From an uncultured Clostridia bacterium (lineage in GTDB: Bacteria > Bacillota > Clostridia > TANB77 > CAG-508), in assembly GCA_944388605.1 (NCBI GenBank), contig CALXJJ010000005.1, forward strand, positions 5,966 through 69,965: a DNA stretch of 64,000 nt, in the 5' to 3' direction. The notes under the pieces were generated by a model. It worked only from the letters and a program-made list of their open reading frames with translations. It was not told the DNA's origin and made no database searches. A program made the position numbers and the translations under genes. This document shows, piece by piece, positions 11,678-55,405 of the stretch (position 1 is its first letter; each line of letters starts with the position of its first letter).

Positions 11678-11955
11678 ATACAATAGGAAAGTTATCCTTT
11701 CCTATTGTATAAAAGTCGCTACGCTCTAACGACTGCACACAATTTTGACTTCGTAAAATTGGCTTAGGAACAAATTTACTAAAAAGCTAACGAGGAAAGA
11801 TAAAATTAATATAAATTTTAAGGCTTTCCGATTTTTTCTTGAATAGGAAAAATCGACTTTTTCATATTCAAGAAAAAACAACATTGCACAGGAAAATTGC
11901 TATGCAATTTTTCGCGTCGACAAATCTTTACGCTTCTTCAAGAACTTAAATATAT
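11678..11955 (+). repeat. Intergenic repeat family, copy A (long form)
   Basis: Perfect hairpin ACAATAGGAAAG-TTAT-CCTTTCCTATTGT, then TAAAAGTCGCTACGCTCTAACGACTGCACACAATTTTGACTTCGTAAAATTGGCTTAGGAACAAATTT...GGCTTTCCGATTT, plus a 3' extension shared with copy F. Confidence 0.8.
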
Positions 11956-12050
11956 TTCAGATACTATTAATATAATAAAAAGTGATATAAGAACAATAAA
12001 TCATATTGACATTTTTAATAATACAGTATATATGTATAAGGGGGATTGAA

Positions 12051-12530
12051 ATGCAAGAACAATTTATGAAACAAGCGTTAAAAGAAGCAAAAAAAGCATA
12101 TAATAAAAAAGAAATTCCTGTAGGAGCTGTTATAGTAAAGAATGGAGAAATAATAGCCAGAGGACATAACATAAAAGAGATGAAAAATGATTGTACAAAA
12201 CATGCAGAAATAATAGCAATTCAAAAAGCTAGTAAGAAATTAGATTCATGGAGATTAACAGATTGTGAAATGTATGTTACATTAGAGCCTTGTAGTATGT
12301 GTGCAGGAGCTCTTATACAATCAAGAATAAAAAAAATTCATATAGGGTGTATGGATGAAAAAACTGGTGCATGTGGTTCAGTTTTAAATTTATTAGAAGA
12401 TTATAAATTTAATCATAAAATAGAAATTGAAAAAGGAATATTAAAAGAAGAATGTGAAAAAATCTTAAAAGATTTTTTTAAGGAATTAAGAAAGACTAAA
12501 AAAGGAGAAAGATATATGAAGTGTAGGTAA
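12051..12530 (+). CDS. tadA: tRNA-specific adenosine deaminase
   Basis: HAEIIAIQ and LEPCSMCAGA zinc-binding motifs. ATG start after a GGGGGA RBS. Confidence 0.85.
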   Translation: MQEQFMKQALKEAKKAYNKKEIPVGAVIVKNGEIIARGHNIKEMKNDCTKHAEIIAIQKASKKLDSWRLTDCEMYVTLEPCSMCAGALIQSRIKKIHIGCMDEKTGACGSVLNLLEDYKFNHKIEIEKGILKEECEKILKDFFKELRKTKKGERYMKCR

Positions 12531-12650
12531 AATTAAAATAAATGTACATAAAATATAATTTATATAGTGCAGTAATAAGATAATTGTAATAGGAGTGCAT
12601 ATAATAATGCTACTTGAAAAAAAATGAAAATATGTAATAATTGGTAAAAA

Positions 12651-55130: not shown

Positions 55131-55142
55131 CAACTAAAAATT

Positions 55143-55172
55143 AAAAAGAGATAGATTATTCTATCTCTTTTT
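55143..55172 (+). terminator. Rho-independent terminator after adhesin gene 2
   Basis: AAAAAGAGATAGATTATTCTATCTCTTTTT. Confidence 0.65.
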
Positions 55173-55405
55173 AATACAATAGGAAAGTTATCCTTTCCTA
55201 TTATATTAAAGTCGCTATGCTCTAACGACTGCACACAATTTTACTTGCGTAAAATTGGCTTAGGAACAAATTTACTAAAAAGCCAACGAGAAAATATTAA
55301 ATTAGTACAAATTTTAAGGCTTTCCGATTTGTTATTGCACAGAAAAATTGCTATACAATTTTTTGCGTCGACAAATCTTTACGCTTCTTCGAGAACTTAA
55401 ATATA
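55173..55405 (+). repeat. Intergenic repeat family, copy F (long form)
   Basis: Hairpin plus body plus the 3' extension TTGCACAGAAAAATTGCTATACAATTTTTTGCGTCGACAAATCTTTACGCTTCTTCGAGAACTTAAATATAT, shared with copy A. Confidence 0.85.

Follow-up and report, generated by a model that had tools for sequence, protein, structure and literature searches.

A multi-copy family of about 160-nt non-coding repeats, probably a small parasitic mobile DNA, in an uncultured low-G+C gut Clostridia lineage

The 64-kb stretch of DNA analysed here (the window) contains a real family of non-coding repeats built from units of about 160 nt. The family is multi-copy and comprises old and young subfamilies, and the intergenic gaps in which it is found differ from species to species; it is probably a small parasitic mobile DNA. 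We put at roughly 0.55, somewhat better than even, the probability that the copies are a non-autonomous mobile repeat family, perhaps transferred as single-stranded DNA. BOX, RUP, bcr1, REP and the Correia elements are well-known examples of small interspersed repeats, and the family is a new one of this familiar kind; as far as sequence comparison can tell, it appears to have no existing name and to be limited to a small number of species within an uncultured lineage of low-G+C gut Clostridia. The host is a spore-forming Clostridia species of ~26% G+C that is known solely from gut metagenome assemblies.

Repeat units, copies and age structure

The repeat was present at all six loci at which an earlier note, made by reading the DNA, had placed it, as judged by hairpin pattern, direct repeats, BLAST and a covariance model. 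The pattern of the long 5' hairpin (H1) matched four times on the + strand (eight times over both strands of the palindrome) versus 0.00 matches expected, and the longest direct-repeat family in the window was 179 nt long with 4 copies at 89-100% identity. Two checks of the kinds proposed in that note were run: BLAST of one unit (copy A) against the window returned the remaining copies at E = 1e-79 to 1e-10, and a covariance-model search of the window with filters off returned six significant core copies (A, 11711-11841; B1, 21783-21894; B2, 21927-22054; D, 33940-34070; E, 36473-36588; F, 55205-55337), all on the + strand, as the note had said of every copy. A seventh copy, C, is visible by eye, its body being too degenerate for the core model. 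Further copies at other loci were found on contigs L081 and L082 through protein searches with spurious ORFs translated from the repeat, in which two proteins led to two small contigs.

Read 5' to 3', a unit of about 160 nt (G+C about 30%) consists of H1, an optional H2, TGCA, H3 and H4. The first base of H1 is also that of the element, H2 is a small hairpin that is absent in the type I copy E, H3 is an A/T hairpin 3' of the conserved TGCA, and H4 is a 3' hairpin of ~70 nt whose closing stem, GAACAAAT/ATTTGTTC, is the very end of the element, with TTGTTCT as the last bases. The unit has hairpins at both ends, H1 on the 5' side and H4 on the 3' side, and in RNA form its 5' end reads ACAAUAGG and its 3' end UUGUUCU. 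The sequence GGAAAG/CTTTCC is common to H1 and H4 in type II units, with the H4 version broken in copy F and in the L082 copy, and the likeness is absent in the copies of the sister species L071.

All copies are described here on the + strand. Copy A opens with a young type II unit (unit 1, 11680..11839; 140.6 bits under the covariance model), in which H1 lies at 11680-11708, an ATAAAA segment at 11709-11714, H2 at 11715-11733, TGCA at 11734-11737, H3 at 11740-11761 and H4 at 11767-11839, and which ends in GATTTTTTCT. An H1-like hairpin of a second unit (11832..11878; TTTTTTCTTGAATAGGAAAAA-TCGAC-TTTTTCATATTCAAGAAAAAA) takes its outer arm from the final 8 nt of unit 1, with a DNA fold of -16.5 kcal/mol (z = -7.6) and flank complementarity of 8/8, and a further segment lies at 11883..11955. 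The type II unit 1 of copy F (55176..55335; 131.2 bits; about 91% identical to A) is followed by the homologous segment at 55334..55406, the H1-like hairpin being absent. This segment, which the earlier note had set apart as an extra 3' module, is indeed common to A and F (73 nt, 95% identity; direct-repeat family D5); its make-up of TGCACAG, an H3-like hairpin (AAAATTGC-TAT-GCAATTTT) and then GACAAATCTTTAC identifies it as a partial second unit.

The other copies differ in age and completeness. Copy B1 (21768..21892; 89.7 bits) is old and degenerate, and its end, GATTTGTTCT, abuts the young type II copy B2 (21893..22052; 140.7 bits), whose insertion point is directly behind the 3' hairpin of B1. 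Copy C (26647..26808) is an old variant with a degenerate body and the end GATTTGCTAT. Copy D (33909..34068; 143.9 bits) is young and of type II and has pcrA and a 62-aa/CotF gene pair as neighbours, and copy E (36433..36588; 85.1 bits) is old, of type I, lies between the divergent genes mecA (-) and DUF4321 (+), and resembles the sister-species copies. The claim that each copy starts with a perfect hairpin stands for A and B2. It fails by one mismatch for F and by two for D (one in most other strains), and it does not apply to B1, in which the 5' arm of H1 is lost, or to E, in which H1 is a degenerate remnant with no stable DNA fold. In copy C the hairpin is perfect and of another kind, with 37 bp (26647-26724; DNA fold -34 kcal/mol, z = -17), and of the family sequence it retains the outer arms ACAATAGGAAA/TTTCCTATTGT alone.

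Identity is 95-98% among A, B2, D and the L082 copy and about 91% for F; B1, C and E are far more diverged (63-82%). The set of copies is identical in 16/16 contigs of the same species, and no filled/empty site polymorphism was seen among these 16.

Open reading frames within the units were considered and rejected as coding sequence, being stop-free stretches of only 20-80 codons without starts or ribosome-binding sites. Together with Pfam lists of the window, in which no transposase occurs, this agrees with the earlier statement that the family has neither coding capacity nor a transposase. The absence of a named family was likewise upheld. Rfam 15 (a check that had also been proposed) matched only two tRNAs and the SRP RNA over the whole window at the gathering score, and a search with copy A at E <= 10 brought up nothing beyond chance resemblances, all below threshold, to models of miRNAs and snoRNAs; by distant blastn, copy A matched nothing in the plasmid and phage collections. 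An exact pattern of the 22-nt core, scanned against a genome collection that does not hold the source species, gave 20 single chance matches, with nothing alike beyond the pattern itself, and pattern scans of viral contigs and metagenome contigs gave chance matches only. For a protein from the left flank of the window, a look-up had nothing on record.

Placement behind terminators and pairing with the flank

A terminator stem precedes the start of copies A, C, D and F by 6-13 nt, and with the L081 copy and both L071 copies included the range is 6-14 nt. In the window the terminators concerned, all on the + strand, are the one after tRNA-Arg for A (11633..11679; stem GTCATACAA...TTGTATGAC, T-tract TTATTTTTAT), that of a TraG-like gene for C (26601..26645; 20-bp stem), that of pcrA for D (33871..33908; GGAATGAAA...TTTCATTCC, T-tract TTTTTTGTTTTAT) and that of a gene for a 1913-aa surface protein for F (55147..55175; AGAGATAGA...TCTATCTCT, T-tract TTTTAAT); they make up 4 of about 8 + strand intergenic terminators. 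The earlier note had put every copy directly 3' of a terminator or gene end, which is the case for these four and is not for E, between its divergent genes, nor for B, upstream of which there is no clear terminator. The neighbouring genes are functionally unrelated (tadA, yqeK-like, sbcD, cotF, DUF4321, spoIIE). Orientation is uniform, with 12/12 insertions running the same way as the flanking genes. The GC skew is positive (G>C) over nearly the whole window on the strand bearing the copies, and replication and transcription orientation are confounded here because nearly all genes are co-directional.

We searched the ends for signs of a classical MITE, that is, an element bounded by terminal inverted repeats and mobilised by a DDE transposase, the candidate being an IS630/Tc1-like enzyme with a TA target as proposed for pneumococcal RUP. 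Size and AT-richness are typical of such elements, and TA precedes CAATAGG in every hairpin-bearing copy and follows TTGTTC in D and B1 and perhaps in C. Neither B2 nor E nor the L082 copy has the right-hand TA, and consequently there is no consistent target duplication; nor was a direct repeat found around D, B2 or the L082 copy. The terminal inverted repeats amount to a loose 13/16 resemblance in which each end is part of a separate hairpin. DDE MITEs insert in both orientations. The 12/12 orientation seen here also differs from that of the pneumococcal BOX, RUP and SPRITE elements, about 61% of which are on the leading strand (PMC3049150), and a TA target in DNA of 26% G+C leaves the 6-14 nt spacing behind terminator stems unexplained. 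We therefore consider a DDE-moved MITE unlikely. The comparison with BOX/RUP/ERIC elements or a MITE in the earlier note holds in the broad sense of a non-coding interspersed repeat with an insertion pattern in sister species; it falls short of the strict definition of a MITE, given the loose terminal repeats and the lack of a target-site duplication.

The left flank takes part in the fold of most copies. The H1 stem is lengthened by 6-9 bp through pairing of the upstream T-tract with an A-rich partner just 3' of H1, and such a copy-specific extension is present in 7-8 of 10 hairpins. In copy A the last 6 nt of the T-tract, TTTTAT, pair with ATAAAA into H1, and in copy F flank and internal partner covary (TTTAAT/ATTAAA); further flank/partner pairs come from copy A (TTTTTTCT/AGAAAAAA) and from the sister species (TTTTTTTG/CAAATAAA). 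Among the young copies with a hairpin, B2 alone shows no pairing between the left flank and the internal A-rich segment. The left flank is TTTAT for copies A, C and D and for those on L081 and L082, TTAAT for F, GTTCT for both B2 and one L071 copy (L071_D), and TTTGT for another (L071_C). The right flanks are AAAAAATG, TAATATAC and TGATTAAG, with TTTAT on the left side alone.

From these pairings one may tentatively picture a hairpin-ended element that homes to intrinsic terminators, with the A-rich segment 3' of H1 pairing with the T-tract, an idea to which we give little weight. Pairing on the lagging-strand template or on the transcript would lengthen the hairpin and fix both insertion site and orientation, and a change in the internal segment could retarget the element, which would account for the matched pairs ATTAAA/TTTAAT in F, AGAAAAAA/TTTTTTCT in A and CAAATAAA/TTTTTTTG in the sister species. 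If pairing does direct insertion, the family would be a simple natural case of an element guided to terminators by structure and sequence, with no ribozyme involved, and would provide a handle on the enzyme that moves such elements.

The same observations recall group IIC introns, which insert in the sense orientation just after the stem-loop of an intrinsic terminator and pair with a short T-rich 5' flank (PMC1702495). A retro-mobilised or intron-related element of this kind, in which the pairing of A-rich segment and T-tract would be the analogue of EBS1-IBS1, parallels the IIC recognition of the 5' exon in its post-terminator position, sense orientation and flank pairing. Against it, a unit of 160 nt is far below group II ribozyme size (about 10 times smaller than the introns), has no ribozyme domains, domain V included, lacks both a 5' GUGYG and a 3' AY, carries no intron-encoded protein and matches no Rfam group II model at the gathering or the E-value threshold, and the Pfam lists of the window contain no reverse transcriptase. 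An origin of this type is, in our assessment, highly improbable.

Sister species and conservation of the fold

Diverged relatives of the repeat occur in 1/8 sister species (L071), sampled at the syntenic locus, with copies in the TraG-sbcD gap, the pcrA-cotF gap and one extra gap. The pcrA gap is empty in L079, L078, L070, L074, L076 and L077, and the covariance model had no match in the loci of these six; the family is missing at the same loci in 6/8 sister species. Beyond the known copies, a loose regular-expression search of the sister loci with the 3' core and the H1 arms returned noise only. Vertical conservation of the L071 copies at orthologous sites was considered and rejected, the gap being empty in L079 and L078, the nearest relatives of L071; the PcrA proteins of L079 and L071 share one 88% cluster. 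Since the PcrA identities are star-like, at about 77%, and the gaps of nearer relatives are empty, the gaps shared with L071 suggest independent, parallel insertion and not inheritance, in a comparison that is made, like the other evidence for mobility, among species too diverged for their intergenic DNA to be aligned.

We assessed the fold of the unit on both strands. Compared with shuffled sequences it is more stable on the + strand (z = -4.1) and on the - strand (z = -4.8). The pairing analysis used the covariance-model alignment in place of a MAFFT alignment; on the latter, RNAalifold recovered H3 alone, because that alignment was out of register at the 3' end. Stems are kept in 89.6% of cells, versus 32-58% in slid controls, and double changes affect 8 pairs, versus 2.2 in shuffles, with most of the compensatory evidence coming from one sequence. 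Among the paired changes are a 1-bp deletion on both sides of a stem in the L071 copies (GAACAAT/ATTGTTC) and a GAATAA/TTATTC change in the third L071 copy. On the + strand G.T pairs fill 11 cells and A.C pairs 2, a weak strand signal that comes down to about 5 versus 2 independent events.

These data bear on whether the units are a structured RNA family, either cis-acting modules of 3' or 5' UTRs or small RNAs that arise by read-through or have their own promoter, with hairpins conserved for an RNA fold that serves, for example, stability, processing or insulation of termination. The + strand fold, the helices retained between subfamilies with some compensatory changes, the excess of G.T over A.C and the co-orientation of all copies with transcription are what such a family would show, and the comparable bcr1-3 and BOX repeats are transcribed within UTRs (PMC3446304, PMC3049150). 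Several results point the other way. Read-through into A, C, D and F should be low, since each has a strong terminator immediately before it; a search of the unit for a promoter or terminator of its own found none; the - strand fold is at least as good; the compensatory changes are mostly in one sequence; the neighbouring genes share no function; and the family is absent at the same loci in 6/8 sister species. Near-identical young copies next to decaying old ones are also characteristic of a spreading element, unlike conserved genes. On balance we regard an RNA function as doubtful. Of the earlier suggestion of structured small RNAs co-transcribed by read-through, the retained stems and the few compensatory changes remain, and the upstream terminators and the missing promoter and terminator speak against the rest.

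Mode of spread and relation to known repeats

The units might instead be host-maintained DNA elements of the BIME/REP type, that is, palindrome mosaics that bind protein or buffer supercoiling and that are spread and homogenised by recombination and gene conversion instead of transposition. Their mosaic, tandem make-up (in A, unit 1, H1-like hairpin and partial unit; at the B locus, B1 then B2; in F, the same order without the middle hairpin) and their placement at the ends of transcription units are compatible with this. Palindromes that stay perfect and a flank that covaries with its partner could both result from template-switch correction of quasi-palindromes, and in some strains B2 carries changes that shift it toward the family consensus. 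The absence of the family from most sister species shows that it is not a general host requirement, and gene conversion alone makes no new copies at new loci. REPs are 20-40 nt long and G+C-rich and carry a GTAG or CGTC tag (PMC3733652); the element here is much larger and more AT-rich, and no such tag lies at the foot of a palindrome in the units. Both the host role and spread by conversion strike us as very unlikely.

In the reading that we prefer, the units would be mobilised in trans, the gene for the enzyme lying at another place in the genome. The mechanism would most likely be strand-specific and act on single-stranded DNA, by the 'peel and paste' of IS200/IS605 elements or through another HUH enzyme, which would recognise the terminal hairpins and insert the element 3' of a T-rich site (TTTAT or similar) on the lagging-strand template. 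Such a mechanism would explain the uniform orientation, the lack of a duplication and the tandem insertions. After insertion the copies would probably be neutral passengers between the terminator and the next promoter. In IS200/IS605 elements one strand is excised and integrates at a specific single-stranded target on the lagging-strand template, giving an orientation bias (PMC5027513). The family resembles the PATEs of IS200/IS605 and the REP/RAYT systems in having hairpins at both ends with no need of terminal inverted repeats, in the absence of a duplication, in insertion 3' of a short, here variable, T-rich sequence and in the possibility of tandem arrays. Its strand-specific orientation resembles that of IS200/IS605 elements, which follows the direction of replication (PMC5027513), with the limit that here this direction is confounded with gene orientation.

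Other features fit this mechanism less well. The left and right hairpins of IS200/IS605 ends are usually alike. In the present family they are not consistently so, H1 lies at the first base and is not subterminal, the pairing partner of the flank is 3' of the hairpin instead of being a 4-nt guide 5' of its foot, and the T-rich 'target' is variable (TTTAT, TTAAT, GTTCT, TTTGT). Also counting against trans mobilisation, no transposase was found in the window (Pfam) or in the syntenic loci of relatives, no TnpA, TnpB or RAYT gene with the ends of the family in the window or the syntenic loci, and no full-length parent element in the window or the same-species contigs, which also showed no filled/empty polymorphism.

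Among described families, bcr1 is close in form: it is about 155 bp long, contains stem-loops, is associated with TTTAT and varies in distribution among close relatives (PMC3184786, PMC6542083). Both families are found in Firmicutes, are of similar size, non-coding, intergenic and multi-copy, encode no transposase, have independent stem-loops with compensatory changes and an uneven distribution among close relatives, and share the TTTAT motif, which here precedes A, C, D and the L081 and L082 copies. They differ in that bcr1 is described as having 5-bp TTTAT direct repeats on both sides, whereas here TTTAT is on the left only and is paired into H1, and in that bcr1 copies are present on plasmids (PMC6542083), whereas the plasmid collection held nothing similar to the present repeat; the distinction from bcr1 is one of description, not of consensus sequence. 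The family shares with BOX, RUP and SPRITE a small, AT-rich, hairpin-forming, intergenic element confined to few close species of Firmicutes, with BOX the modular or tandem make-up, and with SPRITE an enrichment downstream of genes (PMC3049150). It has no sequence relation to any of the three; BOX and RUP possess terminal inverted repeats and target duplications, of which the family shows a loose terminal resemblance and no duplication; SPRITE mimics a terminator, whereas the units here stand behind a separate terminator and have no 3' T-tract. We know of no report of strict orientation or of a fixed spacing behind terminators for bcr1. What is unusual about the family is the combination of 12/12 orientation, a fixed post-terminator position, no target duplication and a 5' hairpin that recruits the T-tract.

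The value of one more such family in an uncultured gut Clostridia lineage is chiefly practical. The repeat breaks metagenome assemblies. Contigs from independent metagenome assemblies (L025, L028, L029, L073 and L082) end inside the repeat, which fits a multi-copy element. The repeat can also be miscalled as small genes (P0128, P0129), and it is usable as a strain or species marker.

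Detection, anatomy and structure of the units

These intergenic repeats, built of hairpins and belonging to no named family, are real and far beyond chance expectation. A hairpin pattern matched four times on the + strand of the window against 0.00 expected (eight if both palindrome strands are counted). A repeat finder returned a 179-nt family of four copies (89-100% identity), a 57-nt core common to six loci and a 73-nt module in copies A and F (95% identity), and BLAST of the window with copy A as query recovered the other copies at E = 1e-79 to 1e-10. R1, a covariance model of the core with 29 base pairs, was run with filters off and gave exactly six significant matches, all on the + strand: A (11711-11841), B1 (21783-21894), B2 (21927-22054), D (33940-34070), E (36473-36588) and F (55205-55337). 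In copy C (26647-26808) the 3' end and the outer 5'-hairpin arms survive, and the body is too degenerate for R1. The six cores and degenerate C bear out the loci listed in the earlier note, and the 6/6 + strand matches its claim that all copies share one strand. The window has a G+C content of ~26% and a GC skew that is positive nearly throughout, and its + strand carries most of the genes.

Copy D illustrates the ~160-nt unit. The 5' hairpin H1, ACAATAGGAAAG-TTATC-CTTTCxxATTGT, is followed by ATAAAA; the optional H2 (GTCG...CGAC) by TGCA; the A/T hairpin H3 (CAATTTT...AAAATTG) by a short linker; and the ~70-nt hairpin H4 has a closing stem, GAACAAAT/ATTTGTTC, that finishes at the element's last bases, TTGTTCT. 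Folded as RNA, this copy reached -37.6 kcal/mol (z = -4.1) on the + strand and -42.8 kcal/mol (z = -4.8) on the - strand. The perfect hairpin that the earlier note ascribed to each copy was found in A and B2 only: F has one mismatch and D two, C forms a 37-bp hairpin with an interior unlike the family, B1 lacks the 5' arm, and E retains a remnant with no stable fold. The extra 3' module ascribed to A and F is indeed common to both (TGCACAG, an H3-like hairpin AAAATTGC-TAT-GCAATTTT, then GACAAATCTTTAC) and is a partial second unit. An H1-like hairpin (11832-11878) also separates the two units of A. Three of the six loci (A, B, F) are therefore tandem or mosaic. Two subfamilies were distinguished: type II, which is young, has a short H1 loop plus H2 and takes in A, B2, D, F and a copy on the small metagenome contig L082 (91-98% alike), and type I, with a long H1 loop and no H2, comprises E and the sister-species copies.

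Pairing statistics were computed on a model-guided alignment of nine distinct copies. Standard pairs filled 89.6% of cells, compared with 32-58% when partners were slid, and 8 pairs changed on both sides, compared with 2.2 in shuffles (1 of 500 shuffles reached the observed value), in an alignment fitted to the model and with one sequence supplying most double changes. In the window the inner H4 stem reads AAAGC/GCTTT; its counterpart in L071_D, a copy on the sister-species contig L071, is CGGGCTTT/AAAGCCCG. The H4 closing stem in L071 is shorter by one base pair, with a base gone from each strand, giving GAACAAT/ATTGTTC, and reads GAATAA/TTATTC in a third L071 copy. G.T pairs exceeded A.C pairs (11 cells vs 2, or ~5 vs 2 independent events), a slight indication that the + strand is the one that folds. 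The structure matters, and these data do not separate DNA from RNA as the form in which it does so; that the repeats are a family of functional RNAs we consider unlikely. Rfam, which the earlier note had proposed searching, returned no family for the window at gathering score or for copy A at E <= 10.

Placement, orientation and flank pairing

Units start 6-14 nt past a terminator stem, at the end of the T-tract, in A, C, D, F, both full L071 copies and a copy on the small contig L081. The start of B2 directly abuts the terminal hairpin of B1, and E lies between the divergent genes mecA (-) and DUF4321 (+). The proposal that copies sit behind a terminator or gene end therefore holds for A, C, D and F and fails for E. 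Within the window, units occupy 4 of the ~8 + strand intergenic terminators. All insertions (12/12) are co-oriented with neighbouring genes, and those in the window all lie on the strand with G>C skew, where replication and transcription directions are confounded; the pneumococcal BOX, RUP and SPRITE elements are on the leading strand in only ~61% of cases (PMC3049150). No direct repeats flank D, B2 or the L082 copy. A MITE moved by a TA-targeting DDE transposase conflicts with the orientation bias and with a TA that is inconsistent among copies.

The H1 stem runs 6-9 bp past its conserved arms, with upstream T-rich bases pairing to A-rich bases just 3' of H1. The paired sequence is copy-specific: TTTTAT/ATAAAA in A, D and the L081 and L082 copies, TTTTTAT/ATAAAAA in C, TTTAAT/ATTAAA in F, TTTTTTCT/AGAAAAAA at the second hairpin of A, TTTTTTTG/CAAATAAA in L071_C (the L071 copy in the gap matching window C) and ATTTTGTTC with GAGTAAAAT in L071_D (likewise for D). 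B2 is the exception, because its left flank is the end of B1. The T-rich bases may be part of the element, the stem being kept by compensation or palindrome correction, or they may be the target, with which an internal segment pairs. B2 points to (T)ACAATAGG as the start of the mobile unit, which favours the T-rich bases as target, as a single case that is not decisive.

Spurious ORFs led to two more copies, at other loci. On L082 the 3' part of a tRNA gene is followed by a full type II unit. On L081 (884 nt) the unit (~348-456, - strand) lies 7 nt past the terminator stem of a 91-aa gene and ends abruptly after H3, where it is fused to the 5' part of an ABC ATPase gene in antisense. That gene is truncated at ~codon 55, and the fused ORF (P0129) represents 4 member sequences; a repeat copy at which a deletion or rearrangement truly took place could explain the junction, as could a chimeric assembly that recurred. 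Copy A and the L082 copy are both just downstream of tRNA genes; RNA genes in the window include tRNA-Arg(CCU) (11546-11622), tRNA-Ser(CGA) (12651-12743) and the SRP RNA (13773-13870).

Distribution and mode of movement

Window proteins were recovered solely from ENA and Logan metagenome contigs, whose sample codes suggest gut studies, on a reading of names only. The same-species contigs (16/16) all agree in their copies and in the sites these occupy, at 98-100% identity. Several contigs start or end inside the repeat (L025, L028, L029, L073), as assemblers do at multi-copy sequences.

PcrA homologues form ~12 groups, all ~77% identical to the window protein and to one another in a star-like pattern, and the syntenic 20 kb was compared for seven further groups. 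One of these, the P0055 group (L071-L073), has clearly homologous, diverged units: L071 3853-4030 between the TraG-like gene and sbcD, where the window has copy C; 12364-12548 between pcrA and cotF, where it has D; and a degenerate unit after cotF (13085-13192). No unit is present in the pcrA gap of L079, whose PcrA shares an 88% cluster with that of L071, of L078 (PcrA 85% identical to that of L071), or of L070, L074, L076 and L077; R1 with filters off gave no match in these six loci. Vertical conservation at orthologous sites was set aside, as the closest relatives of L071 have empty sites; for the same reason independent insertion is the simpler account of the shared gaps, and with 4 of ~8 terminators occupied it is unsurprising that the same gaps were hit twice.

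Plasmid and phage collections contained nothing similar to the repeat, and pattern scans of genome, viral and metagenome collections gave chance matches only. Stop-free stretches within the repeats are short, with no signals for a start. Pfam annotation of the window and syntenic loci found housekeeping and sporulation genes plus large surface proteins (annotated genes include murA, spoIIR, tadA, dnaX, recR, sleB, ypeB, SASP, sbcCD, prfB, pcrA, cotF, mecA, radC, mreBCD, minC and spoIIE) and no transposase, integrase or reverse transcriptase, in agreement with the earlier note that the copies have neither coding capacity nor a transposase.

A non-autonomous mobile repeat agrees with the evidence: the family is multi-copy, some subfamilies are young and others decaying, its distribution among sister species is patchy, and it lands in a neutral zone between terminator and next promoter. 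Putative tadA and sbcD promoters, as read from the sequence, lie downstream of units. Of the mechanisms already known, the one that would explain the most features, short of proof, is a strand-specific transposition of single-stranded DNA, of the IS200/IS605 or HUH type. It would account for the hairpins at the ends, the tandem insertions, the absence of a target duplication, the uniform orientation with respect to the lagging-strand template and the insertion 3' of short T-rich sequence (PMC5027513); however, the two end hairpins here are not consistently alike, the flank pairing has another geometry than the IS608 guide, and no transposase for the family was found in the window or syntenic loci. 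Like these units, group IIC introns combine terminator homing with flank pairing (PMC1702495), but every ribozyme hallmark is absent here. The closest described analogue in kind is bcr1 of the Bacillus cereus group (PMC3184786, PMC6542083), whose two-sided TTTAT repeats are absent here. The element is of an already-known kind and the family itself is new; its placement and flank pairing are unusually regular and merit a genome-wide test.

Other features near the locus

The 11-mer TTTCCGTAAGA occurs exactly three times on the + strand (36743-36753, 44178-44188, 62639-62649; 0.74 matches expected within one mismatch), each shortly before a + strand gene or in the gap that follows tatD. Two sites have ~48 nt of similar upstream sequence in common (family D10), and in the sister species the DUF4321 gene has a related 'TTACGTAAGAGGATAGGAGG' ahead of it (L071, ~15365); the 11-mer may belong to a leader common to these sites or to a regulatory motif.

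A TraG/VirD4-type coupling protein (660 aa) and two small upstream ORFs without a Pfam match occupy 23752-26586 in housekeeping surroundings. The sister species has kept this arrangement (L071 879-3769), so the region looks like a fixed chromosomal feature and not a recent conjugative element. At 28001-30000 G+C falls to 17% within a 640-aa AAA_27 (SbcC-like) gene rich in A-rich low-complexity repeats (families D4, D8, D12, D13, D15).

The spoIIE region (55749-58227) is listed as two overlapping ORFs, 55749-56090 and 56050-58227, and the SpoIIE_N match begins at profile position 110; a frameshift or misplaced start may be involved. In several sister species mecA, mreB and a PBP2-like gene are each called as two fragments (L071 14862-15131, 16409-17480 and 18921-21012; L078 and L079 are similar). 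Decay of the genes is one possible cause, and errors of assembly and frameshifts in these metagenome contigs are another. A giant ORF of 10,373 residues without a Pfam match adjoins the syntenic region in L077 (1-7909), and large CLIPPER/SdrD_B/Cna_B surface proteins (1,400-2,100 aa) are frequent near the locus across the whole group.
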